A DNA stretch of 64,000 nucleotides from positions 142,376 to 206,375 of the forward strand of contig CAZTCI010000004.1 in assembly GCA_964612665.1 (NCBI GenBank), written 5' to 3'. This document shows, piece by piece, positions 4,651-57,117 of the stretch. The first letter of the stretch is position 1. Each line of letters opens with the position of its first letter. The position numbers and the translations under genes were made by a program. A model generated the notes under the pieces. That model worked only from the letters and a program-made list of their open reading frames with translations. It did not search any database and was not told the origin of the DNA. The stretch is from an uncultured Planctomycetales bacterium (lineage in GTDB: Bacteria; Omnitrophota; Gorgyraeia; Zapsychrales; JAHFFX01).

Positions 4651-4745
4651 TTACTGGCCTTTTCTCTCCCAAAGATAAGCTTATTCTATCATTGTCAGCG
4701 AGAAAAGGCCTAGTACTAGACTTTTGCAATGCAAAAGTCAGTAAG
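4651..4745. mobile_element. MITE-like palindromic element, family C copy 1 (95 bp)
   Basis: Near-identical reverse-complement copy at 17317..17411. Internal perfect palindrome gacttttgcaatgcaaaagtc. Termini ttactg...cagtaa. Lies in the intergenic region between trmB and the carboxypeptidase gene, where the ORF track over-extends through it. Confidence 0.75.
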
Positions 4746-4835
4746 GTAGTCAATATTTGGCCTTTTTCTAGAAGGGAAAAAGTCTTAATATTGGATTTCC
4801 TTAATATTGGTTTGGAAAAGGCCAATAAAACTCTG

Positions 4836-5687
4836 TTGAAACAGCGCCAAACGCGACGGGTTGTCATTGTATTTCTTTTTTGTTTAAGTTTTAGTTCAAT
4901 TACAATCACGCCGTCCTTTGCCAAGCTAAAAACTCTTCACAAAAAAACGGGTTCTTACGTTGTCTCCGCTAAATCCGCCATTGTATTAAGCGCTCGAGGA
5001 AAACAATTTTATCAGAAAAATATTTTTCGGCCCGTTCAGCCCGCCAGCACGACCAAAGTCATGACGGCCATTTTGGTTTTAGAAAAATTACCTTTAGACC
5101 AAGTGTTAACAGTCAAAGAAACAGCGACGTGGGTTCAGCCGAGCCGGCTTGATTTAAAGCCCGGCGAACACTATCGTGTTTCTGATCTCTTATATGCACT
5201 TTTAATCAACTCAGCTAACGATGCCAGTGTGGTATTGGCGGAAGGTGTAGCTGGATCGGAGGCCAATTTTGTTCAATTGATGAACCGGCGTGCGCGCCAA
5301 CTTGGTGCAACGCGCACCAGGTTCGTGAATGCGCATGGGCTTCCAGTCAAAGGGAAAACTCAATTTACAACCGCTTATGATATGGCGATGATTTTTAAAA
5401 CAGCTCTGAAAAATAGTTTTTTCAGAAACACTATCGCTCAGCGTTACAAAATTATCTATTCACAAGAAGGTCGTCGGATAACATTAAAGAATCATAACCG
5501 AATGCTTTTTACCCCGTGGGGTAAAGATATTAGGGGAAAAACAGGTTATACGCGCGCGGCGCAATCGTGCTTTGTTGGTTATATGCCTCAAGGGAAGGAT
5601 GATTTGCTTGTGGCCGTTTTCGGCTGCAGCCGCCGATGGCATGATATTCATTATTTAATGATGAAGTATGGAGGGTTAAGACGGTAA
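4836..5687 (+). CDS. D-alanyl-D-alanine carboxypeptidase (peptidase S11, PBP5/6-like); start uncertain (TTG or CTG candidate)
   Basis: Signal peptide RRVVIVFLFCLSFSSITITPSFA, then the SxxK motif (PASTTKVMTA) and SAN motif (LINSANDA) of class A low-MW PBPs. No in-frame ATG lies between the MITE and the signal peptide. Confidence 0.65.
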   Translation: MKQRQTRRVVIVFLFCLSFSSITITPSFAKLKTLHKKTGSYVVSAKSAIVLSARGKQFYQKNIFRPVQPASTTKVMTAILVLEKLPLDQVLTVKETATWVQPSRLDLKPGEHYRVSDLLYALLINSANDASVVLAEGVAGSEANFVQLMNRRARQLGATRTRFVNAHGLPVKGKTQFTTAYDMAMIFKTALKNSFFRNTIAQRYKIIYSQEGRRITLKNHNRMLFTPWGKDIRGKTGYTRAAQSCFVGYMPQGKDDLLVAVFGCSRRWHDIHYLMMKYGGLRR

Positions 5688-5692
5688 GTAAT

Positions 5693-6999: not shown

Positions 7000-7007
7000 A
7001 TAATAAA

Positions 7008-7486: not shown

Positions 7487-9319
7487 ATGTGCGGCATAAT
7501 TGGTTACGTTGGTCACAAAGAGGCCGTGGGCATTTTGGTCGACGGTCTAAAGAAGCTCGAATATCGCGGTTATGATTCTAGTGGCGTTGGTGTTGTTTCA
7601 GCCCATGATGGAAAAATCGCGGTCCGCAAGAGCGAAGGCAAGATTCAAAATCTAGTCAATCTCATCAAAGCCAATCATTTACCCCAAAGTTCCGTCGGAA
7701 TATCCCACACCCGCTGGGCAACCCACGGTGTTCCGAATCGGATTAATGCCCATCCTCATTTTGATTGTTCCCACAAAATTCTGGTCGTTCATAACGGCAT
7801 TATTGAAAATTATCAAGAACTTAAAAGCAGTTTAGCCAAAAAAGGCCATAAATTTCTTTCCCAAACTGATACTGAAGTCGTTGCCCACCTCATTGAAGAA
7901 TATAATTACGGCGATATTTTAGAAGCGGTCAAACGCGCAATTAGTGAATTAAAAGGCGCTTTTGCGTTAGGGATCATTAATAGTGATCAGCCTGATACAT
8001 TGATCGCCGCCCGAGTCGGTTCTCCGCTCATTGTTGGCGTAGGACAGGGCGAACATTTTATTGCTTCCGATGTGCCAGCCATATTGGATAAAACTCGTCG
8101 GATTATTTATCTTCAAGATGAACAGCTCGCGGTCATTAAGAAAGATGGACTTAAACTCTTAGATTTTCGGGGCACGCTTTTAACACCGAAGGTTGATTCG
8201 GTTTCTTTCAGCATTGGTTCAGCGCAGAAGGAAGGTTATCCGCATTTTATGCTGAAAGAAATTCATGAACAACCGAAGGTCCTGTCCCAAATGATTTCAG
8301 CGCACATTAAAGGCGGCAAAATTATTTTAGAAGGATTGCATCTTAAGGAAAAAGAATTAAAAAATATTGAACAAATGATGATTGTCGCCTGCGGGACCGC
8401 TTATCACGCTGGGATGGTTGGTAAATATATTATTGAACAGCTGGCAGGATTGCCAGTTGCCGTAGATGTGTCGTCGGAATTTCGTTATCGTTCGCCGATT
8501 ATAAGTAAGAAAACATTAATTGTCGCCATCAGTCAGTCTGGTGAAACCGCTGATACGCTTGCGGCTGTTAAGGAAGCTAAAGCCAAAGGCGCTAAAGTTG
8601 TTTCTATATGTAATGTGTTGGGATCGTCTTTGGTGCGTGAGTCCGACGGTGTTTTGTATACACATGCTGGCCCGGAAATCGGAGTCGCCTCGACTAAAGC
8701 ATACACCGCCCAATTAGGCATGCTTTATCTTTTAGCTTTGAAATTAGGCGAAATGCGTAAAGTATTACCTGCACCTGAGCTTAAAAACATTGCTGAAGAT
8801 CTAAAGAAAATTCCGCATCTTTATGAAGAGATTTTAAAGATTAAAACTAGTGTTGGTAAAATTGCGCGGGCCAATTCCCATTTTGGTTCGTTTCTTTTTT
8901 TGGGCAGGAATGTCAATTATCCTTCAGCCCTTGAAGGTGCACTTAAATTAAAAGAAATTTCTTATATTCCCGCTGAAGGCTACGCCGCCGGTGAAATGAA
9001 ACACGGACCTATTGCGCTCATTGATGAATACCGCGCTGTTGTTTGTATCGCGCCACATGCCGACACTTATGAAAAAATGATTTCCAATATGCAAGAAATC
9101 CGCGCGCGTAAAGGAAAGATCATCGCGATTGCGACCGCCGGCGATACCACCATCAAACAACACGCGCACCACGTTATTTACATTCCCAAAACAAATCAAA
9201 TCCTGACACCTCTTTTGGCGGCGCTTCCTTTACAGATGATTGCTTATTATATTGCCACCAAGCGCGGGTGTGATGTCGATCAACCGCGTAATCTGGCTAA
9301 GTCAGTTACGGTCGAATGA
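7487..9319 (+). CDS. glmS: glutamine--fructose-6-phosphate aminotransferase (isomerizing)
   Basis: N-terminal MCGIIGYVG Ntn-amidotransferase start, two SIS domains, C-terminal ...VDQPRNLAKSVTVE. Confidence 0.95.
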   Translation: MCGIIGYVGHKEAVGILVDGLKKLEYRGYDSSGVGVVSAHDGKIAVRKSEGKIQNLVNLIKANHLPQSSVGISHTRWATHGVPNRINAHPHFDCSHKILVVHNGIIENYQELKSSLAKKGHKFLSQTDTEVVAHLIEEYNYGDILEAVKRAISELKGAFALGIINSDQPDTLIAARVGSPLIVGVGQGEHFIASDVPAILDKTRRIIYLQDEQLAVIKKDGLKLLDFRGTLLTPKVDSVSFSIGSAQKEGYPHFMLKEIHEQPKVLSQMISAHIKGGKIILEGLHLKEKELKNIEQMMIVACGTAYHAGMVGKYIIEQLAGLPVAVDVSSEFRYRSPIISKKTLIVAISQSGETADTLAAVKEAKAKGAKVVSICNVLGSSLVRESDGVLYTHAGPEIGVASTKAYTAQLGMLYLLALKLGEMRKVLPAPELKNIAEDLKKIPHLYEEILKIKTSVGKIARANSHFGSFLFLGRNVNYPSALEGALKLKEISYIPAEGYAAGEMKHGPIALIDEYRAVVCIAPHADTYEKMISNMQEIRARKGKIIAIATAGDTTIKQHAHHVIYIPKTNQILTPLLAALPLQMIAYYIATKRGCDVDQPRNLAKSVTVE

Positions 9320-9335
9320 AGTCTTCATTAGAAAT

Positions 9336-9417
9336 AAAGAAGTAGAGAAGTAAAAGGTAGAGAAATACAGAGAAAAATTCTAATCTCTACATCTTTACTT
9401 CTTGCTTCTCTACTTCT
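9336..9417. repeat. family A palindromic repeat (GTAGAGA / TCTCTAC type), copy A1
   Basis: Purine-rich arm aagaagtagagaagtaaaaggtagag pairs with ctctacatctttacttcttgcttctctacttctt. Directly 3' of glmS. Confidence 0.75.
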
Positions 9418-9423
9418 TAAACC

Positions 9424-10089
9424 ATGCTCTACATCGTCTCAACTCCTATCGGCAACTTAAAAGACATTACCCTTCGGGCGATTGAGGTTTTAAAAGGAGT
9501 TGATCTGATCGCCGCGGAAGATACGCGCCATACCAAAATCTTTACCCAGCATTATCAAATCGCAACACCGTTAACCAGCTATTTCGAACATAATCAGATT
9601 AAGAAAGCGGATTATTTGTTGAGCCTTTTAAAAGAAGGCAAGAAGATCGCTTTGGTCACCGACGCCGGGACTCCTGGAATTAGTGACCCGGGTTACCATT
9701 TGATCCGGTTGGTTCAGGAGAATGAGATCCCGATGACGGTCGTTCCGGGCGCGACAGCGTTGATTGCGGCGTTGTCGCTTTCGGGTTTGCCGGCGCACAG
9801 TTTTATTTTTGAAGGATTTTTGCCGGTCAAGTCAGCCGCCCGTCGGAAAAAGCTGGAATCAATGCGGGATGAGACCCGTACGATTATTTTTTATGAATCT
9901 CCGTACCGGTTGATTAAAACATTAAAAGATATTGCGGAAATTTGGAATGATCCGGTTGTTGTCTGCGCGCGGGAGTTGACAAAAAAATTTGAAGAGGTCA
10001 AGAAGGACAAGGCCAGTCAGTTGATGGAATATTTTGAACGGCACCAGCCTCGAGGGGAGTTTGTGTTGCTTTTGAATAGAAGTTCATAA
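9424..10089 (+). CDS. rsmI: 16S rRNA (cytidine1402-2'-O)-methyltransferase
   Basis: MLYIVSTPIGNLKDITLRAIEVLKGVDLIAAEDTRHT is the conserved RsmI tetrapyrrole-methylase-like N-terminus. Confidence 0.85.
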   Translation: MLYIVSTPIGNLKDITLRAIEVLKGVDLIAAEDTRHTKIFTQHYQIATPLTSYFEHNQIKKADYLLSLLKEGKKIALVTDAGTPGISDPGYHLIRLVQENEIPMTVVPGATALIAALSLSGLPAHSFIFEGFLPVKSAARRKKLESMRDETRTIIFYESPYRLIKTLKDIAEIWNDPVVVCARELTKKFEEVKKDKASQLMEYFERHQPRGEFVLLLNRSS

Positions 10090-12194: not shown

Positions 12195-13824
<1,630 letters not shown>

Positions 13825-13904
13825 CTGGAACGTTCAAGCTGCATGCTACAAGTCTCGTGCATTGAAGCCTGAAGTTATTAGCGATTAGAAATAAAGGACT
13901 ATTT

Positions 13905-15203
13905 ATGTCGATTCTGATTAAAAACGCAATCATTGTGAGCGCTGATAAAATCGCTTCCAAGCCGCAAGATATCTTTCTTGAAAAAGGAAAAATTTCCAAG
14001 CTTGCGCCGAAATTGGATTTGTCCGCCGAGGAAACGATTGACGCGCAGGATAAGTTAGTTTTGCCTGGACTCATCGATCTTCATGTTCATCTGCGTGAAC
14101 CTGGCCGCGAAGATAAAGAAACGATTGAAACTGGTTCGCGCTCAGCCGCTAAAGGCGGATTTACTTCCATTTTTTGCATGCCGAATACGAATCCCGTTAT
14201 CGATAATGGGATGATCGTTGAAGCGATTATCAAAGAAGCTAAGCGCGTTGGGCTCGTGAATGTCTATCCGATTGGTGCGATCACGAAAGGCCAAAAGAAT
14301 GAAGAGCTGACGGATATGGCGGAACTTAAAAAATCCGGATGTCTGGTGCTTTCCGACGACGGAAAAGCGGTCGCCAACGGCCAGCTCATGCGCCGTGCTT
14401 TGGAATACGCCAAGATGCTTGGTCTTCTGCTTATTCAACACTGCGAAGACCCATTATTAAGCAATCACGGCTGCATGAATGAAGGCGTTACCTCGACGCT
14501 ATTAGGATTAAAAGGAATTCCAGGTGTTGCCGAAACAATTATTGTCGCCCGTGATATTGAACTCGCCCATTATCTTAAAACCAAAATTCATTTTGCGCAT
14601 ATGAGTTTAAAACGTTCGATTGAGTTAATTCGATTTGCTAAATCTCAAGGCATCTTCGTGACCGCGGAAGTTTGCCCGCATCACTTCACATTGACCGATG
14701 AAATTGTGAAATCATTCGATACCAACACCAAAGTCAATCCGCCGCTGCGCACGCAAGAAGACGTTGACGCTTTAAAAGAAGGCCTTAAAGACGGTACGAT
14801 TGACTGCATCACAACCGACCATGCACCGCACACCGCCGAGGAAAAAGAATCTGAATATGATCACGCGCCGTTCGGCATGATTGGATTAGAAACAGCCGTG
14901 GGTCTCGCCATAACCGAACTCGTCGAAAAAGAATATTTGACCTGGCCTGAACTCGTCAATAAAATGTCGACGATGCCAGCCAAGATCACCGGCTTAACAA
15001 ATAAAGGCGAAATCAAAGAAGGCAAAGACGCCGACATTACAATCATCGACTCCGATTGTGAATGGATTTTTCGTAAAGAAGAAATCACCTCCAAATCCAA
15101 AAACTCGCCTTTTATCGCACGTAAACTTAAAGGCCGGGTTGCCGCAACGATTTGTAATGGAAAGATAGTTTATGAACAGGAGAGAGAAGAGAGTAGAAAG
15201 TAG
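13905..15203 (+). CDS. pyrC: dihydroorotase
   Basis: LPGLIDLHVHLREPG and FTSIFCMPNTNP metal-binding motifs of amidohydrolase-type DHOase. The C-terminal residues are encoded by repeat A2. Confidence 0.85.
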   Translation: MSILIKNAIIVSADKIASKPQDIFLEKGKISKLAPKLDLSAEETIDAQDKLVLPGLIDLHVHLREPGREDKETIETGSRSAAKGGFTSIFCMPNTNPVIDNGMIVEAIIKEAKRVGLVNVYPIGAITKGQKNEELTDMAELKKSGCLVLSDDGKAVANGQLMRRALEYAKMLGLLLIQHCEDPLLSNHGCMNEGVTSTLLGLKGIPGVAETIIVARDIELAHYLKTKIHFAHMSLKRSIELIRFAKSQGIFVTAEVCPHHFTLTDEIVKSFDTNTKVNPPLRTQEDVDALKEGLKDGTIDCITTDHAPHTAEEKESEYDHAPFGMIGLETAVGLAITELVEKEYLTWPELVNKMSTMPAKITGLTNKGEIKEGKDADITIIDSDCEWIFRKEEITSKSKNSPFIARKLKGRVAATICNGKIVYEQEREESRK

Positions 15204-15256
15204 AGAGTCAGCAAATTTCGTATCACTCTCTACTCTCACCTTGCTCCTTTCTACTA
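15183..15256. repeat. family A palindromic repeat, copy A2
   Basis: gagtagaaagtagagagt...actctctactctc with extended arms. Spans the pyrC stop codon, directly before tRNA-Arg. Confidence 0.75.
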
Positions 15257-15276
15257 TATTTGAGTTCATTCGAATA

Positions 15277-15348: not shown

Positions 15349-15471
15349 CTTCGACTCGACTCTTCTTTGTTTTGTACTTGGCCTCGCTCAGTGTAAACTT
15401 TAGAGGGCCGAGTACGAAGTGCCCTGAGCGAACGACTAGGATTGTTTATCATAAGGGAGTGAGTCGAAGGG

Positions 15472-15717
15472 ATGTGGACGGTTTACATCATTCAAAGAAA
15501 AGATAGCTCGTTATATATAGGTATGACAATCGATATAGAGCGGCGCCTCCAAGAGCATAGGCGGAATATGAATTTTTGTGAGATCGAATCAATATATAAA
15601 GAACAATTTCCTGATAAGTTTAAAGCAGCAGCCAGAGAGAAACAACTTAAAGGTTGGACAAGAAAAAAGAAATTAGCTCTGATGGCTGGTGATTTAGAAT
15701 TGTTAAAGAAGCTGTAA
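15472..15717 (+). CDS. GIY-YIG nuclease family protein (UPF0213 / YhbQ-like)
   Basis: VYIIQRKDSSLYIGMTIDIERRLQEH is the GIY-YIG signature. Small 81-aa protein. Confidence 0.7.
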   Translation: MWTVYIIQRKDSSLYIGMTIDIERRLQEHRRNMNFCEIESIYKEQFPDKFKAAAREKQLKGWTRKKKLALMAGDLELLKKL

Positions 15718-16382: not shown

Positions 16383-16465
16383 AAGAGAAGTAGAGAGGCA
16401 AGAAGCAAAGAAGCAGAGAAAAAGCGTTTATCTCTACTTCGCTGCCTCTTGCTTTTCTATTTCTT
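16383..16465. repeat. family A palindromic repeat, copy A3
   Basis: gaagtagagaggcaagaagcaaagaagcagagaaaa...tctctacttcgctgcctcttgcttttctatttctt. Confidence 0.7.
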
Positions 16466-16495
16466 AACCTCAGTCTTCCCCATACATAAAAACTC

Positions 16496-18219: not shown

Positions 18220-18993
18220 ATGGATAAAATCCAACACACCGTTAAAGTTGTTTCCAATAAAAAACTTTGCCCGCAGTTTCATTGCCTGGCGTTAGAAGCG
18301 AAAGGCATTCTTCATAAAATCCTTCCCGGGCAGTTTATTCACATCAAAACTTCGGATGGACTTGAACCGTTTTTCCGACGACCTTTCAGCGTTTACCGCG
18401 CTAAGAAGTATGTGGAAATTTTTTTTGAAGTCGTCGGGCTGGGTACGCGGTTACTCTCCGAGAAAAAGCCGGGCGATCTCTTGGATATCCTGGGCCCGCT
18501 CGGAAACCGTTTTACCCCGCCGCCTAAAGGTACGAAACAAGTCGTCATGATCGCCGGCGGCATCGGCATCGCGCCGTTTTTGATTCTCTCCGATGAGCTA
18601 CGAGCTACGAACTACGAGCTCATCTTGTTTTACGGCGCCAGAACCAAGAATCACGTTTATCCCATGAAGGAATTCAAGCAAAACGGCTGTAAAATTTTTG
18701 TATCAACCGATGATGGCAGCGTCGGTGTTAAAGGACGCGTCAGTCAATTGTTTAACAAAATTAAAATCGACCCGGCCTCAACCATGCTTTATACGTGCGG
18801 TCCACATGCGATGATGCACGCAGTCCAAGAATTTGCCGTTAAAAATAATTTGCACTGCGAAGCGTCATGCGAAGAAATCATGGCCTGCGCGCTTGGCGCG
18901 TGTTTGGGCTGTTCGATTCAAACCACGTCGGGGTATAAGACGGTTTGTTATGACGGGCCGGTGTTTGATATAAAAGAAATTGTATTTGCGTGA
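18220..18993 (+). CDS. pyrK: dihydroorotate dehydrogenase electron-transfer subunit
   Basis: FAD/NAD-binding ferredoxin-reductase fold (RRPFSV, GGIGIAPF) and C-terminal Cys cluster CxxxxCxxC...C for the 2Fe-2S centre. Directly precedes pyrD. Confidence 0.8.
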   Translation: MDKIQHTVKVVSNKKLCPQFHCLALEAKGILHKILPGQFIHIKTSDGLEPFFRRPFSVYRAKKYVEIFFEVVGLGTRLLSEKKPGDLLDILGPLGNRFTPPPKGTKQVVMIAGGIGIAPFLILSDELRATNYELILFYGARTKNHVYPMKEFKQNGCKIFVSTDDGSVGVKGRVSQLFNKIKIDPASTMLYTCGPHAMMHAVQEFAVKNNLHCEASCEEIMACALGACLGCSIQTTSGYKTVCYDGPVFDIKEIVFA

Positions 18994-19077
18994 TTCGTGG
19001 TTCGTCGTTCGAGGAAACCGTTTTTTTATATGCAAATAAAAGAACGAATGCCACGAACAACGAAAGCACGAACGACC
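18994..19077. repeat. family B palindromic repeat (CGTTCG-type), copy B1
   Basis: Shares ...ttcgtcgttcgaggaaa.cg...aaataaaagaacgaat.cc.cgaacaacgaaagca with 36112..36192. Lies between pyrK and pyrD. The ORF-track pyrD start is extended through it. Confidence 0.75.
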
Positions 19078-19992: not shown

Positions 19993-20125
19993 ATTTTTTC
20001 CGTCCCCGCAGAGCGTAAGGCGGCCGGACGCGATATGATCGCCGAAGCCCCATCTACACCTCCGGGGTGCGGATGGGTTCTGCGAAGAGATTTAAAACAG
20101 ACGAAAAAACAAAAAAGGAGTCCGT

Positions 20126-22540: not shown

Positions 22541-22622
22541 TAAGGAGAAAGGAGCGAGTAGAAAGTAGAGAGTCTGTGCAAGTTTGCATCTCTCTACTCT
22601 CTCCTTGTTACTCTCTACTCTT
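22541..22622. repeat. family A palindromic repeat, copy A4
   Basis: aaggagaaaggagcgagtagaaagtagagagt...actctctactctctccttgttactctctactctt. Fills the gap between hppA stop and pyrF start. Confidence 0.75.
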
Positions 22623-27733: not shown

Positions 27734-27762
27734 AAAGCCATCTTATAAATTAAGATGGCTTT
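27734..27762. terminator. hairpin terminator between convergent tRNA-Asp and a minus-strand gene
   Basis: aaagccatctta-taaat-taagatggcttt followed by TTTATTT. Abuts the stop codon of the minus-strand GT-C gene. Confidence 0.6.
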
Positions 27763-27763
27763 T

Positions 27764-28972
27764 TTATTTGGACCACAATTCAGGAGCCGGGTTTAGGGTT
27801 TTTGTCAATACAAAGGCAGTCAGACCGCTGCTGACAAAAATTAGGAAGGCAATAAAAGTTAAACGTAAAACAAAGTAAGCATATTGATTAATTTGTTTGA
27901 CGGTGGTGATCCCTTTGATAATGAGAACGAGCACAACCGGCGCAAAAAAAAGCGAGGTGCGCGGGACCGTGAAAGGATATTTCTTTAACGCACCCAAGGT
28001 CACCAGTTCGACAAAAATAAAAAAGGCTATCGTTGTTAAATTTTTAGAGCGAAATTGATCTTTACGAATATTTGTTAAGAAACCATAAACCATTTCAAAA
28101 ATTCCAATCACCGCAAAAGGAATCCCAAATTTTTTAAAAGTTTTCGGCTTCTCCACAAACCAGCGGAAAAATAAATTACAGACACCCTCGCCGAATGTTT
28201 TAAAGAATTCGGGAATGGACTTCAGTGAAATAAAATAATCTGCCCAGTAATCCACAATCCTCACCGGTTTAAACCGCATGTCAAAACAGTAAGAGATCGT
28301 CGAGAAGAAGATACTCGCCAGTATAAACGTGAGTAAATATCGGCGTTGTTCAGGATTCTCCCGGCTCGCCAGCACTAAATTGTAAAAAACAATCGGAAGA
28401 AAGAAATAAGCTGGATAAGAAAAAAGCACGAGTGCCGGTAAAAGAGCCAGGATGATTCCATAACGGTTATCTTTGCGTGCCTGCAGAGTTTCTTGATTAT
28501 AAATAAATAAAATAAATAAAGCGGCGCTTAAGACATCCATTGAATATTGTTTAAGTTCTGCCGAGTAATAAATCAAAACCGCTGATGCGTTCCAACATAA
28601 AATAAAGGTTAGAACATCCAGTTTATTTTTGAATTCGTAATGGGCGATTTTAAGCCAAACAAAAAAAGCCGTAATCATGGCCGCAAAAGGAAGAAAGCGT
28701 AAGCTGATTAAATGATATTGGAAGGGCTGGGAAAATTTTTGGATGCAAAAAAGATAAAAGTGCGGGAAGACTTGGACGGCCATTAACATGTCATGAAAGA
28801 TGCGATAAGCGTCGAAGTCGCGAATGCTTTGAAAGACACAAAGCTCATCATTCCATAAAGGCCGCATGCAAAGTAAATGCAAAACGCAAAGCCATAGATA
28901 CCAAGAGGCAGCTGCGATAATGACAAATTTTAGAAAGCGTTCTAAGGGAGATGTTTGGGGTGATTGGTTCAT
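27764..28972 (-). CDS. GT-C superfamily membrane glycosyltransferase (ArnT/PMT-like)
   Basis: Polytopic membrane protein with the N-terminal periplasmic-loop motif RPLWNDE characteristic of GT-C polyprenol-phosphate-sugar-dependent transferases. Confidence 0.5.
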   Translation of the reverse strand: MNQSPQTSPLERFLKFVIIAAASWYLWLCVLHLLCMRPLWNDELCVFQSIRDFDAYRIFHDMLMAVQVFPHFYLFCIQKFSQPFQYHLISLRFLPFAAMITAFFVWLKIAHYEFKNKLDVLTFILCWNASAVLIYYSAELKQYSMDVLSAALFILFIYNQETLQARKDNRYGIILALLPALVLFSYPAYFFLPIVFYNLVLASRENPEQRRYLLTFILASIFFSTISYCFDMRFKPVRIVDYWADYFISLKSIPEFFKTFGEGVCNLFFRWFVEKPKTFKKFGIPFAVIGIFEMVYGFLTNIRKDQFRSKNLTTIAFFIFVELVTLGALKKYPFTVPRTSLFFAPVVLVLIIKGITTVKQINQYAYFVLRLTFIAFLIFVSSGLTAFVLTKTLNPAPELWSK

Positions 28973-33840: not shown

Positions 33841-33911
33841 TTAATGATTCGAATATTAATTTTTAGGTTATGGTAACGAAGCCGGTTTCGTTAGGGGTTT
33901 GGGGTTAGGTG

Positions 33912-33943
33912 TTACTGGCCTTTTGCAATGCAAAAGTCAGTAA
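33912..33943. mobile_element. miniature derivative of the family C MITE-like element (32 bp)
   Basis: ttactggccttttgcaatgcaaaagtcagtaa joins the two termini of the 95-bp element. Sits inside a family D inverted repeat (33893..33989). Confidence 0.6.
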
Positions 33944-34031
33944 AAACATTTTATGTTATGATTCTTAGACTTTACCCTAACCTAAAACCGAAATGGGTCT
34001 CCTAACCTTAACCGTTAAGAAAAGTCAATCA

Positions 34032-35018
34032 ATGGGCCGCCCAAGAAAAGTTCTCATTGTTAAAACGGGATTTTCCGAATTTTTAGACCGCGGGATTTCG
34101 ACGACGGTGAGTTTAGGCGATGTGCATATTTGTACGGCGCTTTTGCATATTTATAAGAACGATAGTGTGACTTGGATGACTTCTTGGGACGCGCGGTTGC
34201 TTTTTAAGGATAATCCTTATGTTAAAGAGTTGCTGATCTTCGGGCCTCAAGCCATTCAAAAGATCACACAGGCGTCTTATGATCTTCTGATAAATTTGGA
34301 AAAAGACATCGGCATCTGCACCTTCTTACGTCACGTTAAAGCCAAAAAGCGTTTTGGGTTTTATTTTAGCGACCGTATCCATAATATTGCAACGCATAAT
34401 CGTGCCACTAAATATCTTTTAGCCGGACAGGAGAACCACCGCAACATTGATAAATCTGTTTTTGAAATTCTATATGAGGCCGTTGGGGAAAAGTGGAGCG
34501 GGCAGCTGCCGGTGTTTTCCCGTCAGCATAAAAGCGAAATTCGTTACGATGTTGGGTTTAACTACTCCGTCGGAACCAAATGGCCAACGAAGGCGTGGCC
34601 GGATGATAAATGGACGACGCTAGAAACGCTGCTTACGCCGCAATTCAAGATCAGCTGGCAGCGCGGACATCGGAACATTCTTCAATACGTTGACTGGTTA
34701 GACAGCTGCCGGGTTATTGTCACCTCCGATTCGCTGGCGCAATCGTTGGGTGTGGCGCTTGATAAAAAAGTCATTGTGCTTTATGGTCCAACCAATTCTC
34801 GTCGGGTGGAAGGACTTAAGAATTTGGAGGTCATCACATCATGTTTGGATTGTCCGCACATGCCGTGTTTTTCGCCGGTTTGTAAATTTGACCGTTTTTG
34901 TATGGATTATATTTCGCCCGAGCAGGTCGCGGGGATTTGCAGGTCTTGGCTGTCGTCGTCGGAAAGAAGTAAAGAAGCAGAGAAGCAAGAAATAGAGATG
35001 CAGAGAGTATTAATATAG
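34032..35018 (+). CDS. glycosyltransferase family 9 (LPS heptosyltransferase-like)
   Basis: VLIVKTGFSEFLDRGISTTVSLGDVHICTALLHIYKND matches the GT9 N-terminus (KILIIR.SSLGDV...). The C-terminal approximately 20 residues are encoded by repeat A5. Confidence 0.6.
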   Translation: MGRPRKVLIVKTGFSEFLDRGISTTVSLGDVHICTALLHIYKNDSVTWMTSWDARLLFKDNPYVKELLIFGPQAIQKITQASYDLLINLEKDIGICTFLRHVKAKKRFGFYFSDRIHNIATHNRATKYLLAGQENHRNIDKSVFEILYEAVGEKWSGQLPVFSRQHKSEIRYDVGFNYSVGTKWPTKAWPDDKWTTLETLLTPQFKISWQRGHRNILQYVDWLDSCRVIVTSDSLAQSLGVALDKKVIVLYGPTNSRRVEGLKNLEVITSCLDCPHMPCFSPVCKFDRFCMDYISPEQVAGICRSWLSSSERSKEAEKQEIEMQRVLI

Positions 35019-35090
35019 AAGTAGAGAAGTAAGAGGTAGAGATGTAGAGAAAATCTCTACATCTTTGCTTCTTTACCTCTCTACCTCTCT
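34961..35090. repeat. family A palindromic repeat, copy A5 (extra purine-rich half-arm plus full palindrome)
   Basis: gaaagaagtaaagaagcagagaagcaagaaatagagatgcagagagt then agaagtagagaagtaagaggtagagatgtagagaaaatctctacatctttgcttctttacctctctacctctct. Confidence 0.75.
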
Positions 35091-36111: not shown

Positions 36112-36192
36112 TCGTTCGTTTGTTCGTCGTTCGAGGAAATCGTCCTTTTATTTTGAAATAAAAGAACGAATTCCTCGAACAACGAAAGCAGA
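36112..36192. repeat. family B palindromic repeat, copy B2
   Basis: gtcgttcgtttgttcgtcgttcgaggaaatcg...cgaattcctcgaacaacgaaagca. The arms pair as tcgttcgaggaa / ttcctcgaacaacga. Confidence 0.75.
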
Positions 36193-36336
36193 GACTGTTG
36201 AATAATGAAATTTGAACGCGAATATGCGCGAATTATTCGCGATATTCGTGTGAAATTCGCGAAAATTCGCGTTGACATTCAATCTTTCAATGTCTCAAAG
36301 CACGAACGACGCTTCGCCAAACTAAAACAACCAAAC

Positions 36337-37305
36337 ATGCCGTTAATAACCTCTGAGATTAAGAAACAACTCCTAACCAAGATGCTTAAAATCCGCGCTG
36401 CGGAAGAAAAGATCGTCGATGTTTACACGAAAGAGCAGCAGATCCGCACGCCTACGCATTTGTCGATTGGGCAAGAGGCGGTTGCGGCCGGGCTTTGTCA
36501 GGCGCTTACAAAAGAAGATCAGGTTTTTGCTGGACATCGTTGTCACGCGGTTTACTTGGCCAAGGATGGAGATTTGAACGCGTTTTTCGCGGAACTTTGC
36601 GGACGGATTACCGGCAGCAGCCGCGGGCGCGCCGGGTCGGCTCATTTAACAGACGTTGACAACGGTGTTTACTCTTCGCCGATTTTAGGCGCGATGATTC
36701 CTGTTGCCGTCGGGGCGGCAATGACATTTCAAATGGATCAAAAACCGAATGTCGCGGTTGCCATGTTTGGTGACGGCGCCATTGAAGAAGGGATTCTTGC
36801 GGAAAGTTTGAATTTTGCAATCACCAAAAAACTTCCAATCCTTTTTTTGTGTGAGAACAATTTGTATTCAACGCATTCACCTTTAAAAGTCCGCCAACCT
36901 TCTTCTGCGATTCATGAACGTCTGCGATTGAAAGAACTCAAAACCCAGCAGATCGACGGAAATGACGTCATCTTAGTTTATCAAACTATTTTAAACGCGA
37001 TTGAACAGATCCGCGAAGGCTGGGGCCCGAGCTTTGTTGAATGTTTAACGTACCGGATCCGTGAGCACGTCGGACCTTTGTTCGACTACGACCGCGGTTA
37101 TCGCAGCGAACAAGAAGTCCGTCAGTGGATGGACCGCTGTCCGGTTAAGCGTTACCGCAATCGATTGCTGGCCGAAAGAGTTTTTACGCTAACTGAAATT
37201 GAAGCGGAAGAAAAGAAATGGCAATACCTCGCCGATGAAGCTTATGCTAGTGCGCTTAAAGAGCCGTGGCCGTCGTCGGAAGATTTATTAAAATTTGTAT
37301 ATTAA
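36337..37305 (+). CDS. thiamine-diphosphate-dependent dehydrogenase E1 component, alpha subunit (PDH/acetoin DH E1-alpha-like); alternative upstream start 36205
   Basis: ThDP-binding GDGAIEEG...NN motif (FGDGAIEEGILAESLNFAITKKLPILFLCENNLYS). Followed by an E1-beta gene. The region 36205..36336 is rich in TTCGCGA repeats and may be regulatory rather than coding. Confidence 0.7.
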   Translation: MPLITSEIKKQLLTKMLKIRAAEEKIVDVYTKEQQIRTPTHLSIGQEAVAAGLCQALTKEDQVFAGHRCHAVYLAKDGDLNAFFAELCGRITGSSRGRAGSAHLTDVDNGVYSSPILGAMIPVAVGAAMTFQMDQKPNVAVAMFGDGAIEEGILAESLNFAITKKLPILFLCENNLYSTHSPLKVRQPSSAIHERLRLKELKTQQIDGNDVILVYQTILNAIEQIREGWGPSFVECLTYRIREHVGPLFDYDRGYRSEQEVRQWMDRCPVKRYRNRLLAERVFTLTEIEAEEKKWQYLADEAYASALKEPWPSSEDLLKFVY

Positions 37306-37378
37306 GTTTGCCAGTTTCCAGTTCACAGTTTTGAAAATTATTTAACTGGATAACTTGCCACTGGCTAACTGGAGAACT
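37306..37378. repeat. family F palindromic repeat (CCAGTT / AACTGG type), copy F1
   Basis: gtttgccagtttccagttcacagtt...aactggataacttgccactggctaactggagaact. Same family at 57039..57117. Confidence 0.7.
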
Positions 37379-37383
37379 AAAAA

Positions 37384-38424: not shown

Positions 38425-38426
38425 GT

Positions 38427-38486
38427 GATAGGGTTTTAGGTGTCAGGTGTTAGGGACTAAAACTAAAACCTAAGACCCAAACCCTA
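38427..38486. repeat. family D palindromic repeat (GGGTTTAGG-type), copy D2
   Basis: tagggttttaggtgtcagg...cctaagacccaaaccctag inverted arms. Related arms flank the mini-MITE at 33893..33989. Confidence 0.6.
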
Positions 38487-38493
38487 GAAAAAT

Positions 38494-40390: not shown

Positions 40391-41042
40391 ACTCGGTACA
40401 GATTATCAGTTTGTCGACTTAATTGAGCTGGGACCGTGGTCGTCTTACAGCCTGCTTAACGACCCTAAGCATATGGGTTTTGTTTTGGCCCGTTATAAAT
40501 TTTGCGCCAAGATGTTGGAAGGAAAAAAGAAGGTCTTGGAAGTTGGTTGCGGTGATGGATTCGGCGCGCCAGTTGTTGCGCAGGCCGTTGGACATTTGGT
40601 TGCGATCGACCCCGAAGCCCGCCATATTGAAGGCAACAAACGGAGGCTGGCTAAAATTAAAAATATTGAATTTAAGCATATGGATATCTGCCACAGTCTG
40701 CCCGACGGAGAATTTGACGGCATTTTTTCAATCGATGTCATTGAACATTTGGACAAACCGCTTAATAAGAAATTTATGGAAAATCAGCGTGACTTGCTTA
40801 ACGACGACGGTGTTTGTATCATCGGTACCCCCAACATTACCGCGAATAAATACGCTTCACCGCGCAGCCGCGTTCAACACATCAATTTAAAAAGCCATAA
40901 AACGTTACGCATGCAGATGGAAAAATATTTTAGGAACGTTTTTATGTTCAGCATGAATGATGAAGTGTTACATACAGGCTATGCGCCGATGGGGCATTAT
41001 ATTTTTGGAATGGGAGTCGGGGTTAAGAAAAGTAGAGAGTAG
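40338..41042 (+). CDS. class I SAM-dependent methyltransferase
   Basis: VLEVGCGDGFGAPVVAQAVGHLVAIDPEA SAM-binding motif I. The C-terminal approximately 7 residues are encoded by repeat A6. Confidence 0.65.
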   Translation: MKVFMGKSKKLSQQEAYRLGTDYQFVDLIELGPWSSYSLLNDPKHMGFVLARYKFCAKMLEGKKKVLEVGCGDGFGAPVVAQAVGHLVAIDPEARHIEGNKRRLAKIKNIEFKHMDICHSLPDGEFDGIFSIDVIEHLDKPLNKKFMENQRDLLNDDGVCIIGTPNITANKYASPRSRVQHINLKSHKTLRMQMEKYFRNVFMFSMNDEVLHTGYAPMGHYIFGMGVGVKKSRE

Positions 41043-41105
41043 CAAGGAGCGAGGAGAGAGTGCCATTAGCTGACTCTCTACTTTCTCCTCTCTACTCGCT
41101 CCTTT
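41028..41105. repeat. family A palindromic repeat, copy A6
   Basis: aaaagtagagagtagcaaggagcgaggagagagt...actctctactttctcctctctactcgctcctt. Confidence 0.75.
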
Positions 41106-41121
41106 AAAAGGAAGTACACAA

Positions 41122-44954: not shown

Positions 44955-45398
44955 TTGGATTTTATAGATCTCGTTATGGCCTTGGATTTAGGAAGTTTTA
45001 AAAAAGCCGTTGGATCGCTTGAAAGAGCCTTGCAGGTGGCGTGTTCTCCACAAAAAATGGCTGGATTAGACAAGGACCAAAAAGAAACAATCCGAGCGGG
45101 CGTTATCCAGAATTTTAAATTTACGTATGAATTGTCCTGGAAGTTTATGAAACGCTGGCTTGAACGCAATCTCGGCTCAACTTATGTCGATGGGCTTTTC
45201 CGTCGGGAATTATTTAGATTATCTATTGAGCATCAATTAATTAACAATATTGAAAATTGGATGGTGTACCATGAAGCGCGCAGCCAAACCGCGCATACCT
45301 ACGATGAGATAAAAGCGCAAGAGGTCTTTGAGACCGCCCAAGGGTTTTTAAATGACGCCCAAATATTGCCCAAAAGTCTTGAGACCAAGAATGATTAA
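44955..45398 (+). CDS. HEPN-domain protein (HI0074 / nucleotidyltransferase substrate-binding family)
   Basis: IQNFKFTYELSWKFMKRWLERN matches the conserved core of the HI0074 family. The 3' end overlaps the next gene as ATGATTAA. Confidence 0.6.
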   Translation: MDFIDLVMALDLGSFKKAVGSLERALQVACSPQKMAGLDKDQKETIRAGVIQNFKFTYELSWKFMKRWLERNLGSTYVDGLFRRELFRLSIEHQLINNIENWMVYHEARSQTAHTYDEIKAQEVFETAQGFLNDAQILPKSLETKND

Positions 45399-45699
45399 CG
45401 TTCACGCTAAAAATTTAACAGCGGTAAAAAAGATTTTAGACCAATATCTTCCTGGGATTGAAGTTTGGGCTTTTGGTTCGCGTGTCGGCGGCCAAGCCAA
45501 ATCATACTCGGATTTGGACTTGGTTATTGTTGGAAAAAGTAAAATTGATCGTGTGGCATGGGTTCGTTTAAAAGAGGCCTTTGAAGAATCCAAACTTCCT
45601 TTTCGAGTTGATCTCATCGATTGGAACAGTATATCGACGGATTTTCAGAAAATTGTTACGCAGAATTACGAAATACTTCAAAGTGGAAAAAAATCATAA
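45391..45699 (+). CDS. minimal nucleotidyltransferase (MNT, Pol-beta superfamily)
   Basis: AFGSRVGGQAKSYSDLDLVIV is the GSx10DxD nucleotidyltransferase motif. Paired with the HEPN gene. Confidence 0.6.
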   Translation: MINVHAKNLTAVKKILDQYLPGIEVWAFGSRVGGQAKSYSDLDLVIVGKSKIDRVAWVRLKEAFEESKLPFRVDLIDWNSISTDFQKIVTQNYEILQSGKKS

Positions 45700-45709
45700 A
45701 ACAACAATA

Positions 45710-46504
45710 GTGGATCAGGAGACCTGGCGCATTCACAATTATTTACGCCGACGGATCGTTGATATGGTCGTTGAAGGACGCGACGGACATATCCCGAGTG
45801 CGTTTTCTATTTTGGATCTCGTTACTCTTTTGTATAAATACTATTTAAAATTTGATCCCACCAAACCGCAATGGCCGGAGCGGGATTATTTTATTTTAAG
45901 CAAAGGCCACGGGTGCTTGGCGTTGTATGTGAATTTGAAAGAGCATGGATTTATTACCGAGGAGGATTTGAAGAAATTCTGTAAGGCTGACGGCATTCTA
46001 GGTGAACATCCGGATTCGACCAAGGTGCCAGGGGTTGAAGCCTGCACAGGTTCTTTGGGCCACGGCATTTGTTTTGCCGTCGGGCTGGCGCTCGGATTGC
46101 GCATTCAAGGACAAAACAATAAGATTTATGTTTTAGTTGGCGACGGCGAATGTCACGAAGGGACCGTGTGGGAAGCGGCGAATATCGCGAACAATTTACA
46201 ATTGGGAAATCTTTGTGTCATCGTTGATTGGAACGGTTCAGCCGCGCAATTGATGCCGCGTGATGACTTGCCGTCGAAATGGCGGGCGTTCGGCTGGCAG
46301 ACGCGCGTGATTGACGGCCATTCTTTGAAAGAAATTCACGGCGCATTTAATGCTACGGAATTCCGCAGTGAAGGCTCTCCGTCGGTAATTCTAGCCAAGA
46401 CAATCAAAGGAAAAGGTGTTCCGATGCTGGAAGGCCACGGCAGCTGGCACCACCGTATTCCAAATGAGCAAGAATATAAAGTGATTATGGAAGCCTTGAC
46501 TTAA
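45710..46504 (+). CDS. transketolase, N-terminal (ThDP-binding) subunit; GTG start tentative
   Basis: Split-transketolase N-section motifs (GHIPSAFSILDL, GSLGHGICFAVGLAL, GDGECHEGTVWEA). Confidence 0.7.
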   Translation: MDQETWRIHNYLRRRIVDMVVEGRDGHIPSAFSILDLVTLLYKYYLKFDPTKPQWPERDYFILSKGHGCLALYVNLKEHGFITEEDLKKFCKADGILGEHPDSTKVPGVEACTGSLGHGICFAVGLALGLRIQGQNNKIYVLVGDGECHEGTVWEAANIANNLQLGNLCVIVDWNGSAAQLMPRDDLPSKWRAFGWQTRVIDGHSLKEIHGAFNATEFRSEGSPSVILAKTIKGKGVPMLEGHGSWHHRIPNEQEYKVIMEALT

Positions 46505-46533
46505 CCACCCCAACCCCGGGGGTTGAGGTGGTT
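46503..46533. repeat. family E palindromic repeat (CCCCAACC / GGTTGGGG type), copy E1
   Basis: aaccaccccaacccc-ggg-ggttgaggtggtt directly after the transketolase-N stop. Confidence 0.6.
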
Positions 46534-46557
46534 TTTGAGTTAATTCGAGAGAAGATT

Positions 46558-50369: not shown

Positions 50370-51097
50370 ATCACGACGTTTTAGAAAAATACAAAAAAGA
50401 CGGTTTTGCTATTATCAAACTTTATAACGACAATGAAGTGGCTGTACTTGAAAAGTTTACTTCACAGTGGCTCTACCGTCTTCTGGCGCCTTGGGTCAAA
50501 GGCCGCGAAGCCGAATTCCCTTTAGACAAATATCACGTTTGGTCAAAAACACTCCAAGTGGACCATGGCCAGCTTTTCCGTGCGCAAAATCGTTATATGT
50601 CTCCCGAACTGATAATTGAAAAAACGGTTTTGAATTCTAAGGTCGATGAATTTATGCGTTTGATCGGCTGGCCCGATTATAAAGTGCGTGATGAAGGGTT
50701 AGGCTGGATAGGTTTTCGTTTTATCCGTCCAGGTGTTAATGATGGTTATCCTTTTTCGCGCAAAGCCTGGGGCTACGCCAAAAATTGTGTGTCCTGCTGG
50801 ATCCCAATCATTGGCCATAACCCCAGCGAAACCTTGCGTCTTATACCGGGTTCGCACTTAAAGGAATACGAAAGTTTCTTACCGACGGACCAAAAATTCA
50901 CGCGCGGCGAATACCGCCTGGCCCAAAAACCAGAAGACCATGAAATCTACAGCCCGGCCTTAAAAAAAGGCGAGGCCATATTTTATGATCATATGACATT
51001 GCACAGCGAAGATGTCATTAAAAGTTCTGTAACTCGACTCAGTCTAGAATTTCGGGTCGTTCAAACCTCCCCAACCCCGGAGGTTGGGGAGGTTTAA
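50345..51097 (+). CDS. phytanoyl-CoA dioxygenase (PhyH)-family Fe(II)/2-oxoglutarate oxygenase
   Basis: WIPIIGHNPSETLRLIPGSHLKEY with downstream His (FYDHMTLHSE) fits the PhyH facial triad. The last approximately 10 residues are encoded by repeat E2. Confidence 0.55.
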   Translation: MVQPQVDLDHDVLEKYKKDGFAIIKLYNDNEVAVLEKFTSQWLYRLLAPWVKGREAEFPLDKYHVWSKTLQVDHGQLFRAQNRYMSPELIIEKTVLNSKVDEFMRLIGWPDYKVRDEGLGWIGFRFIRPGVNDGYPFSRKAWGYAKNCVSCWIPIIGHNPSETLRLIPGSHLKEYESFLPTDQKFTRGEYRLAQKPEDHEIYSPALKKGEAIFYDHMTLHSEDVIKSSVTRLSLEFRVVQTSPTPEVGEV

Positions 51098-51127
51098 CCA
51101 TCCCAACCTCCGGGGTTGGGGAGGTCA
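51064..51127. repeat. family E palindromic repeat, copy E2 (two tandem hairpins)
   Basis: aacctccccaacc-ccgg-aggttggggaggtt followed by cccaacc-tccgg-ggttgggg. Confidence 0.65.
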
Positions 51128-56394: not shown

Positions 56395-57037
56395 TTTACT
56401 GCAGAATTATCCAAGGACAAAAAGAAATTTAGAAGAAAGGGCTCAGCTTAAAAGTGAAGAAGACCGCGCGATTGCCCGGCGTTTTGGCAAAGAATTCTTC
56501 GACGGAGACAGGCGTTTCGGCTACGGCGGATTTACCTATCAAAGCCGGTTTTGGCAGCCGGTTGTGCCCGATTTTCAAAAGCATTATGGATTAACAAACA
56601 AGAGCTCAGTTTTGGATGTAGGATGTGCCAAGGGTTTTATGCTGCACGATTTTATGACGCTTATTCCAGGAATAAAAGTGGTTGGCGTTGATGTTTCGCC
56701 ATACGCGATTGCAAATGCGATGGATGATGTCAAACCTTTTGTGCAGATTGCCGACGCCAAGCAGTTGCCCTTTCCGGACAAATCTTTTGATTTAGTAATT
56801 TCAATCAACACAATCCATAATCTTCCCTTGGAAGAATGCAAACAAGCGCTGCGTGAAATCACCCGCGTTTCGCGGAAACATGCCTTTATCACCGTCGATG
56901 CGTACCGCACGCCGGAAGAAAAGCGGCGGATGGACATGTGGAACCTGACCGCGCTGACGTATATGCATGTTGATGAGTGGATATCTTTATTTAGGGAAGT
57001 GGGATATCACGGAGATTATTTTTGGTTCATTCCATAG
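56381..57037 (+). CDS. class I SAM-dependent methyltransferase
   Basis: VLDVGCAKGFMLHDF motif I and DLVISINTIHNL motif. Alternative start 56366. Confidence 0.65.
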   Translation: MPEIDLLQNYPRTKRNLEERAQLKSEEDRAIARRFGKEFFDGDRRFGYGGFTYQSRFWQPVVPDFQKHYGLTNKSSVLDVGCAKGFMLHDFMTLIPGIKVVGVDVSPYAIANAMDDVKPFVQIADAKQLPFPDKSFDLVISINTIHNLPLEECKQALREITRVSRKHAFITVDAYRTPEEKRRMDMWNLTALTYMHVDEWISLFREVGYHGDYFWFIP

Positions 57038-57038
57038 A

Positions 57039-57117
57039 GTTTGCCAGTTCTCCAGTTACCAGTTCTCCAGTTTTAATTTTCAAACTGGTTAACTGGCAAC
57101 TGGAAAACTCGAGAACT
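57039..57117. repeat. family F palindromic repeat, copy F2
   Basis: gtttgccagttctccagttaccagttctccagtt...aactggttaactggcaactggaaaactcgagaact. Confidence 0.7.

Follow-up and report, generated by a model that had tools for sequence, protein, structure and literature searches.

Tandem arrays of a heptamer have been described in several bacterial groups, among them Xanthomonas, in which the unit GGGAATC is 89–93% intergenic, stands between co-directional genes ~28 nt from the upstream open reading frame (ORF) and is mostly present in four units (Rehm et al. 2015, PMC4692102). These arrays are mostly transcribed and rare between divergent genes, and at 70–75 sites per genome an array is followed by its reverse-complement array, yielding potential stem-loops (PMC4692102). 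Furthermore, their length and sequence vary at the same junction between related species (PMC4692102). Here, palindromic repeats are described that crowd the intergenic junctions of a 64-kb stretch (the window, meaning the whole stretch of DNA that was analysed) from a metagenome-assembled genome (MAG) of Candidatus Omnitrophota. The families A, F and D and the outer part of family B are dispersed palindromic repeats, in which one arm consists of 2–5 copies of a 7–8-nt unit and the second arm of the reverse-complement array. With the Xanthomonas repeats they share 7-nt tandem units, a copy number of about four, an intergenic position near the upstream 3' end, inverted pairs and variation at the junction. 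However, Xanthomonas holds one G-rich family that is read via G-quadruplexes, whereas the window holds several unrelated, mostly non-G-rich units. In addition, many Xanthomonas arrays are single and direct, while every periodic array of the window belongs to an inverted pair that fills the whole stop-to-start junction.

Heptamers are also known from cyanobacteria, where the short tandemly repeated repetitive (STRR) sequences of Calothrix, as cited in PMC4692102, comprise three different tandem heptanucleotides and where the Nostoc GGGGA(C/T)T repeats, covered in the same paper, include few inverted pairs. The cyanobacterial heptamers resemble those of the window in being intergenic and dispersed and, in Calothrix, in forming several families per genome, but they are almost always direct arrays and belong to another phylum. 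STRR1 has the unit CCCCAGT, which would resemble the CCAGTT of family F and the CCCAGT units of locus L018. A further direct repeat, TAACTGA, is found in Beggiatoaceae, cyanobacteria and Bacteroidetes, has no known vector, and forms arrays of 2–6 units that carry stop codons, with one inverted case in 170 sets (MacGregor 2015, PMC4679880). The 3'-arm unit of family F, TAACTGG, is one base off this sequence. However, the TAACTGA repeats are direct, lie just upstream of start codons and are predicted to be unstructured, whereas those of the window are hairpins just after stop codons. According to PMC4692102 and PMC4679880, it is still not known what heptamer repeats do in cyanobacteria, Xanthomonas and Beggiatoaceae, and PMC4692102 cites a hypothesis of polymerase slippage for such repeats. 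The repeats of the window are a multi-family, hairpin-only form of this known but unexplained class.

Repetitive extragenic palindromes (REPs) are 20–40 nt long, have a GC-rich stem with one GTAG tag and are associated with REP-associated tyrosine transposases (RAYTs) (Di Nocera et al. 2013, PMC3733652). REPs and bacterial interspersed mosaic elements (BIMEs) reach a high copy number; a role in stabilising mRNA 3' ends or in attenuation has been suggested for them, and they may be mobile (PMC3733652). Like them, the window repeats are extragenic palindromes, often situated in operons past stop codons, and family A contains GTAG. The size and GC content of REPs are found in family E (32 nt, GC-rich), not in the periodic families, and REPs lack the internal tandem units that the periodic families possess; no RAYT gene was seen among the scanned window proteins. 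MITEs (miniature inverted-repeat transposable elements) such as Correia, ERIC and RUP have their counterpart in element C, which is 96 nt long and non-coding and shows inverted termini, both orientations and a nested insertion. Terminal inverted repeats, a set length and near-identical copies are combined in element C only, the periodic families being without defined termini. Intrinsic terminators share the stem-loop past a stop codon, but the periodic families differ in having no U-tract, in their long, imperfect and AT-rich arms and in their location between subunit genes.

The window has a GC content of 0.43, is ~91% coding and carries nearly all genes on the + strand; together with a further 7 kb, 71 kb of the source genome were covered in total. 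The next relatives of its E1-alpha protein are at most 75% identical, and the named ones among them bear a label beginning with Candidatus Omni. A scan for ungapped stem-loops, compared with five shuffles, returned 14 long stems in the window and 0–1 per shuffle (about 0.6). A literal search for the construct required a 6-mer present two or more times in a 36-nt stretch, then its reverse complement, also two or more times, within 140 nt; it returned 8 loci, compared to 0.05 in shuffles. The dense palindromes reported in the original prediction are therefore real and far above the shuffled expectation; the observation as a whole holds for the most part, its interpretation in part. Ten of the 14 long stems fall within the 8.6% of the window called non-coding, and the stems at 36215 and 51065 are also intergenic after correction of gene starts, which brings the count to 12 of 14. 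Tandem Repeats Finder resolves both arms of families A, D and F into units with a period of 7–8 in 3.6–4.9 (about 4–5) copies. In an arm-shuffle test for periodicity, each of the six A copies, both F copies and D2 have one or both arms significant (p ≤ 0.02), while the periodicity of the outer part of B is seen by eye only. The hairpin P3 (Table 1) is flagged only by a looser 5-mer construct test, and the arm-shuffle test found no significant periodicity in E, C, P1, P2, P4 and I2 or in the inner part of B.

When 24 gaps were folded and compared with dinucleotide shuffles, 15 had z ≤ -3, and the gaps with F1, D2, A6 and D1 hold recognisable inverted arrays despite a weaker z. No hairpin was found by this test in the co-directional gaps 378-451, 13825-13904 and 19993-20125, nor in the divergent gap 32730-32949. 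The earlier statement that almost all gaps above 40 bp hold a palindrome is thus roughly right. Six Logan contigs from three sequencing runs, all of one strain, match the window at 99.99–100%, and because of this agreement the palindromes are not an assembly artefact. Contigs L001 and L004–L006 end at ~17383 and ~36205, in or beside C2 and B1/I2, which fits elements that are repeated elsewhere in the genome or are hard to assemble. In Rfam, searched at the gathering threshold and at E ≤ 5, the hairpins match only eukaryotic miRNA-precursor models, and these below threshold (21–31 bits compared to gathering values of 47–184).

The periodic families span 65–100 nt, are AT-rich and purine/pyrimidine-skewed, and have imperfect arms of 25–40 nt. 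Family A, the GTAGAGA-type hairpin, falls into a period-8 (A1, A3, A5) and a period-7 subfamily (A2, A4, A6), and its GTAG is repeated 2–4 times within the 5' arm instead of forming a terminal tag. GTAG is not present in families B, D, E and F. A2 and A4 are sisters, with both arms 85–87% identical and similar loops, and A2, A4 and A6 align over ~100 nt, with the heptamer order fixed, with the copies of a relative (L043) and with a copy on a metagenome contig. The two B copies, of which B2 was absent from the earlier list, are 88% identical over 69 nt. In A5, an additional tandem copy of the 5' arm overlaps the glycosyltransferase ORF upstream of it over the last ~54 nt of that ORF (34965-35018), so that the tail of this glycosyltransferase would be encoded by repeat units. 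The loop of D1 holds a nested 32-nt short form of element C at 33912-33943. In effect, the periodic hairpins amount to 'palindromic microsatellites' and belong with the cyanobacterial heptamer simple sequence repeats (SSRs) and the inverted GGGAATC pairs of Xanthomonas.

A number of further regularities were considered and set aside. RNAalifold covariation over 18 family A copies is uninformative, the periodic arms aligning in several registers. Sense versus antisense folding energy, used as a test for RNA selection, gives no signal, with 7 of 11 hairpins favouring sense. A 'purine-rich arm first' orientation bias is void, as an X-loop-rc(X) element is identical on both strands and only the loop shows orientation. 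A 'three-frame stop-codon cassette' fits the 5' arms of A and D, but fails as a rule because F has its stops in the 3' arm. For intrastrand triplex motifs (PMC4666352) in the purine/pyrimidine arms, no third segment was seen by eye.

The genes of the window are ordinary housekeeping and sugar-biosynthesis genes, including a glmS-like gene, PyrR/pyrB/pyrC, pyrK/pyrD, an H+-PPase gene, pyrF, E1-alpha/E1-beta, a split transketolase, epimerase and glycosyltransferase genes. Relative to the upstream stop codon, the hairpins start at -39 to +20 nt, and in A2, A5 and A6 the TAG stop is inside the first arm. The hairpin ends 3–5 nt before the next ATG in A1, A4, F1, F2, D1, D2 and the family E copy E1, and likewise (5 nt) in B2. 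The two divergent gaps of the window hold no periodic hairpin. No T-run follows A1–A6, B1–B2, F1–F2 or D1–D2, and a terminator consensus scan picks the sites at 12255 and 27734 instead. Furthermore, gene pairs for heteromeric enzymes are split by hairpins, namely E1-alpha/E1-beta by F1, PyrK/PyrD by B2 and transketolase N/C by E2. Because efficient termination would harm two-subunit enzymes and there is no room for a promoter, these hairpins are probably read through, and the junction hairpins are unlikely to be efficient terminators. The features of an intrinsic terminator, a GC-rich 5–14 bp stem with a U-tract at the end of a transcription unit, are not those of the periodic families. The original prediction had argued that the palindromes exceed what ordinary Rho-independent terminators explain, and this is borne out by the 25–40-nt imperfect arms without U-tract, by the canonical terminators elsewhere in the window and by the three split gene pairs.

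The palindromes also affect gene calling, since ORF finders and public gene calls push start codons into them. Pfam domain positions and homologue lengths place the true pyrD start at ATG 19081, not at 18997 or 19030. They likewise indicate later starts for E1-alpha (probably ~36337 versus 36205), the S11 peptidase gene (~4836 versus 4575) and the epimerase gene (~35120 versus 35065). Loss of the Shine-Dalgarno (SD) sequence was considered as a mark of hairpin-adjacent genes and rejected as not distinctive, only 13 of 32 other genes having an SD-like 4-mer.

Table 1. Repeat elements, hairpins and comparator terminators in the window. A dot means that no strand is given; dG is the folding energy. 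E1 and E2 in the first column are copies of family E, whereas E1-alpha and E1-beta are genes.
Feature	Position	Strand	Structure	dG	Neighbourhood
A1	9334..9420	.	GAAGTAGA-type units, period 8	-37	begins 17 nt past stop of glmS-like gene; ends 5 nt ahead of next ATG
A2	15174..15258	.	family A, period 7; arm shuffle p=0.0005		5' arm holds TAG stop of pyrC; tRNA-Arg 18 nt downstream
A3	16384..16466	.	family A, period-8 subfamily	-41	
A4	22543..22621	.	family A		between H+-PPase gene and pyrF; ends 5 nt before ATG
A5	34965..35090	.	family A, period 8, 11.5 units	-42	
A6	41029..41106	.	family A, period 7		5' arm holds TAG stop of methyltransferase gene
B1	36112..36192	.	outer units (T)CGTTCG repeats; inner part non-periodic		
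B2	18993..19075	.	family B	-37	between pyrK stop and true pyrD start; 3' end 5 nt ahead of pyrD ATG 19081
F1	37305..37379	.	NCCAGTT units then TAACTGG units		fills E1-alpha/E1-beta junction; begins at E1-alpha stop; ends 4 nt before E1-beta ATG
F2	57038..57118	.	family F	-36	directly 3' of stop; ends 3 nt ahead of ATG
D1	33861..33988	.	degenerate family D, GTTAGGG x3.6		ends 4 nt before ATG
D2	38425..38489	.	GGTNTNA units, period 7		between E1-beta and epimerase gene; directly after E1-beta stop; ends 4 nt before ATG
E1	51059..51127	.	two tandem copies of GC-rich 32-nt palindrome AACCNCCCCAACCCCGGNGGTTGGGGAGGTT	-61	ends 4 nt before ATG 51131
E2	46503..46534	.	single family E palindrome		between transketolase N and C subunit genes
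C1	4651..4746	.	96-nt element inside composite nested palindrome 4626..4829		
C2	17319..17411	.	same 96-nt two-hairpin element as C1, opposite orientation, ~90% identity		
P1	5692..5826	.	single-copy 135-nt hairpin, 60-nt arms 83% complementary; non-periodic	-69	begins 4 nt after stop
P2	10095..10138	.	perfect 17-bp GC-rich hairpin; non-periodic, no U-tract		between convergent genes
P3	17473..17503	.	(GTTAC)x2 then (GTAAC)x2		abuts ATG 17504
P4	28993..29050	.	GC-rich hairpin; non-periodic		between two minus-strand genes
I2	36197..36292	.	TTCGCGAA-type palindrome cluster, period 10-11, with TTGACA hexamer		
Comparator	12255..12285	+	canonical U-tract terminator		PyrR attenuator
Comparator	27734..27769	.	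canonical hairpin and T-run terminator		after tRNA-Asp and convergent gene

The turnover of these hairpins becomes apparent from a profile scan of species-representative genomes, which gave 80 loci around E1-alpha homologues, ~27 of them Omnitrophota-like. Two close relatives selected through a protein, L007 and L043 (E1-alpha 71–72% identity), were pooled with the source-organism contig L002 as the close set. Strict constructs reach 1.25 per 10 kb in the window and 1.05 in the close set, compared to 0.03 in other Omnitrophota and 0.22 in outgroups, where the matches are mostly GC-rich coding sequence and are genuine in L045 (Anammoxibacter) and L066 (Planctomycetota). Long stems occur at 2.2 per 10 kb in the window, 2.2 in L007 and 2.9 in L043. 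At the glycosyltransferase–epimerase junction, the window carries family A, L007 a CTCGTCG and L043 a GTTGCC hairpin; at the epimerase–E1-alpha junction, these are family B, none (20 nt) and ACAAATT; at the E1-alpha–E1-beta junction, family F, CTCGTnn and family A; and at the E1-beta–epimerase junction, family D, CAAATCA and family A. L007 thus has hairpins at three of these four syntenic junctions, from two other families, and L043 at all four, from three families. The comparison with close relatives suggested in the original prediction hence shows that a given junction tends to be occupied again in a relative, but by another family: the site is re-used, and the family is not conserved. The L043 loops are homologous to one another, yet occur in both orientations. 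At least ten other Omnitrophota loci have the E1-alpha stop and the E1-beta start adjacent or overlapping, and because this applies to most other Omnitrophota E1 junctions, the hairpins are derived additions to tight stop/start junctions.

The scanned loci also contain hairpins of other types. GTAG-tagged, GC-rich REP-like hairpins (GTAGGGGCGGG...CCCGCCCCTAC) were observed in L016 (1645-1673), where the hairpin is located at the E1-alpha/E1-beta junction, and in L066 (16563-16596 and 19843-19870). Hairpins in L013, L021 and L080 were listed with these Omnitrophota/Planctomycetota contigs, as was a GTCATCCC...GGGATGAC-type palindrome family. L045 (Candidatus Anammoxibacter) carries two ~145-nt copies with CTAAAGT-repeat inverted ends (9415-9559 and 10499-10643) and a periodic-arm hairpin with TTGGAGT units (12285-12364); because it carries such elements, the construction principle is also present in anammox Planctomycetota.

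Family A itself extends beyond the lineage. A metagenome scan with a 28-base family A pattern returned 12 contigs with a GC content of 0.40–0.63, which were placed by their encoded proteins: L090, L095 and L098 belong to Actinomycetota/Acidimicrobiia, L089 and L092 to Anaerolineae, L091 to a 'Planctomycetota' MAG and L093 to the L043 organism. The family A-bearing contigs also hold other periodic-arm hairpins, and on them family A is often situated exactly between convergent stop codons. The Acidimicrobiia contigs L095 and L098 are 99.5% identical over 2.2 kb, and their single indel is one 8-nt (GATCTACT)n unit. It lies at L095 3180-3310 and L098 ~9040-9170, where a direct (AGCTGCA)x8 array stands beside (GATCTACT)x5 or x3. 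This one-unit indel is direct evidence of slippage in this repeat class, albeit in a direct array of another phylum. Viral contigs scanned with the family A hairpin pattern gave no match. In the literature, no paper was found on such repeats in Omnitrophota or on the GTAGAGA hairpin, and a search with literal family A strings returned one irrelevant match only. Taken together, the hairpins are dispersed, fill junctions, turn over between relatives and occur in more than one phylum.

The idea of an active generating mechanism, raised in the original prediction, gains indirect support from these observations. Copies at unrelated loci are 85–88% identical along their arms, for B including the loop, the L043 loops occur in both orientations, one junction carries different families in different genomes, and in one array of this kind a single 8-nt unit separates two strains that are otherwise 99.5% identical. 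The best explanation, favoured with moderate confidence, is that the window holds heptamer-type palindromic repeats, added to tight junctions, that are copied, drift by slippage and have a REP-like effect. Whole elements would be copied to new junctions by some route, after which the number of units would drift through replication slippage, and the inverted arrays would arise or be repaired via fold-back or template-switch synthesis. The hairpins would be transcribed within operons, where they would fold into long stem-loops without a U-tract, and they would be tolerated since, once the stem has folded, stop and start codon are again close to each other. Their likely effect would be REP-like, consisting of protection of the upstream 3' end or of mild attenuation.

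Several points weigh against this explanation. Mobility driven by an enzyme would account for the conserved loops and for the presence of the GTAGAGA element in several phyla no less well than slippage does, and the direct evidence for slippage comes from another phylum and from a direct, not an inverted, array. The family E copy E2 may be a real terminator. Judged by duplex energies, the arms of one copy pair no better with each other than with those of other copies of the family; as any 5' arm pairs about equally with any 3' arm, there is no evidence of copy-specific compensatory change. Finally, because the two strands show no consistent folding asymmetry, the structure may be of importance in the DNA, or may have none.

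Enzyme-driven transposition is the main rival. Here, the elements would be miniature non-autonomous REP/MITE transposons, essentially selfish, moved by an enzyme such as an IS200/IS605-type RAYT that recognises the GTAG of family A, and the periodicity would reflect repeated recognition motifs. GTAG is the hallmark tag of RAYT-cleaved REPs (PMC3733652), and the classical GTAG-tagged GC-rich hairpins in L016 and L066 show that this type exists in relatives. Copies at unrelated sites share their arms and partly their loops, the L043 loops lie both ways round, a junction that is empty in the ancestral state receives one family in one genome and another in the next, and the hosts of the GTAGAGA hairpin include Omnitrophota, Acidimicrobiia, Anaerolineae and a 'Planctomycetota' MAG. 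Element C, moreover, has inverted termini and a nested short copy. However, no transposase or Y1 (Y1_Tnp) domain was found among the scanned window proteins, the viral-contig scan returned no copies, and the periodic families lack a recognisable target-site duplication and sharp conserved ends. Unit number and order differ between copies, a length of 65–100 nt is two to three times that of a REP, and families F and D are without GTAG. On balance, this account appears doubtful, if worth serious consideration. A related and bolder proposal, that the GTAGAGA-type hairpin and its sister families are an undescribed cross-phylum class of non-autonomous, heptamer-built palindromes, inserting at the stop side of tight junctions, moved by a sequence-specific enzyme (possibly RAYT-related and reading GTAG) and persisting since the folded stem preserves translational coupling, is speculative and rather unlikely.

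The remaining alternatives assign the hairpins a regulatory role or none. In post-transcriptional control, each 7–8-nt unit would provide the binding register of a protein that recognises single strands (cold-shock/OB-fold, S1-like or CsrA-like), the occupancy of which would decide on hairpin formation and so tune the downstream cistron. The unit length is close to the roughly heptameric CspB footprint that is cited by MacGregor (PMC4679880), the GTAGAGA unit is kept across genomes of GC 0.40–0.63, the base of the hairpin is 3–5 nt from the start codon and over the ribosome-binding region, and the GGAGG before ATG 51131 lies within the E1 stem. This is nevertheless improbable, as there are many unrelated units in one genome, families are swapped at a junction without apparent cost, either orientation occurs, the genes concerned are of miscellaneous function, and most Omnitrophota are without these elements. 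Terminators of a U-tract-less or factor-dependent type are very improbable too. Stable stems downstream of stop codons, their rarity in divergent promoter gaps, the position of family A exactly between convergent genes in other phyla and the T5 run of E2 are what such terminators would show, but the periodic families have no U-tract while genuine ones occur at 12255 and 27734. Hairpins also stand within the pyr cluster and separate E1-alpha from E1-beta, PyrK from PyrD and transketolase N from C, the E1 stop and start overlap in most relatives, and an ATG 3–5 nt further on leaves no room for a promoter. For chance low-complexity sequence or an assembly artefact, it may be said that short-read contigs break at some hairpins and that four periodic hairpins have only a modest z with their flanks included. 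However, 8–14 observed elements compared to ~0.05–0.6 in shuffles, the identical sequence in three runs and the same architecture in independent MAGs and metagenomes leave this reading a negligible chance; counts and independent assemblies effectively refute it.

Beside the heptamer-type hairpins, the window contains elements of other construction. The claim that six unrelated families share one construction principle is only partly right, as it applies to A, F and D and, in B, to the outer part. E is REP-like instead, C is MITE-like, and the isolated palindromes are hairpins of an ordinary kind. Both E and C form families of their own in the same niche as the periodic hairpins. The E1 element is non-heptameric, and its stem includes the GGAGG ahead of ATG 51131. 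E2, which like B2 was missing from the earlier list, is followed by TTTTT and is the sole listed repeat-family hairpin with a T-run. Another E copy is found 7 kb beyond the window (L002 15285-15317). The termini of element C read TTACTGRC...GYCAGTAA, and its flanks show no clear target-site duplication, only two full copies being compared; no insertion sequence (IS) was found in the window. With the true start of the S11 peptidase gene near 4836, the composite palindrome around C1 falls between genes. I2, upstream of the likely E1-alpha start at ~36337, looks more like an operator/promoter array than an SSR hairpin.

Some further observations concern genes near the hairpins. A tandem ~351-nt duplication at 27160-27680 comprises a short GIY-YIG-like ORF and tRNA-Asp. 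The second copy holds the intact tRNA-Asp (27596-27672), whereas the first (~27245-27320) has a GC-rich hairpin (CACCCCGCCTAAGGCGGGGTG) in place of the anticodon arm and is not called by ARAGORN. Small ORFs at 15440-15700 and 27330-27590, which adjoin tRNA-Arg and tRNA-Asp, appear GIY-YIG (UPF0213-type)-like by eye. Two apparent toxin-antitoxin pairs are located among metabolic genes, at 24290-24960 (a small ORF and a PIN-domain protein, after tRNA-Val) and at 44955-45700 (nucleotidyltransferase substrate-binding and NTP_transf_2 proteins). P2 flanks a minus-strand gene (10154-11734) for a 526-aa protein with a C-terminal Peptidase_S74 (endosialidase chaperone) domain. This domain is known from phage tail-fibre-like proteins.

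The locus offers a cleaner natural system for heptamer repeats, as several unrelated unit families stand side by side and every periodic array of the window is paired in a hairpin, at precise stop-to-start junctions whose occupancy changes. Two questions become testable here: whether such repeats owe their origin to an enzyme or to slippage combined with fold-back synthesis, and whether a hairpin that parts the two subunit genes of an enzyme has no effect because folding brings stop and start close together again. In practical terms, the hairpins cause wrong start calls (pyrD, E1-alpha, the S11 peptidase gene and the epimerase gene) and break short-read assemblies of Omnitrophota. That Omnitrophota, Acidimicrobiia and Anaerolineae have the same GTAGAGA hairpin suggests that a small DNA element has either spread horizontally or been selected convergently.

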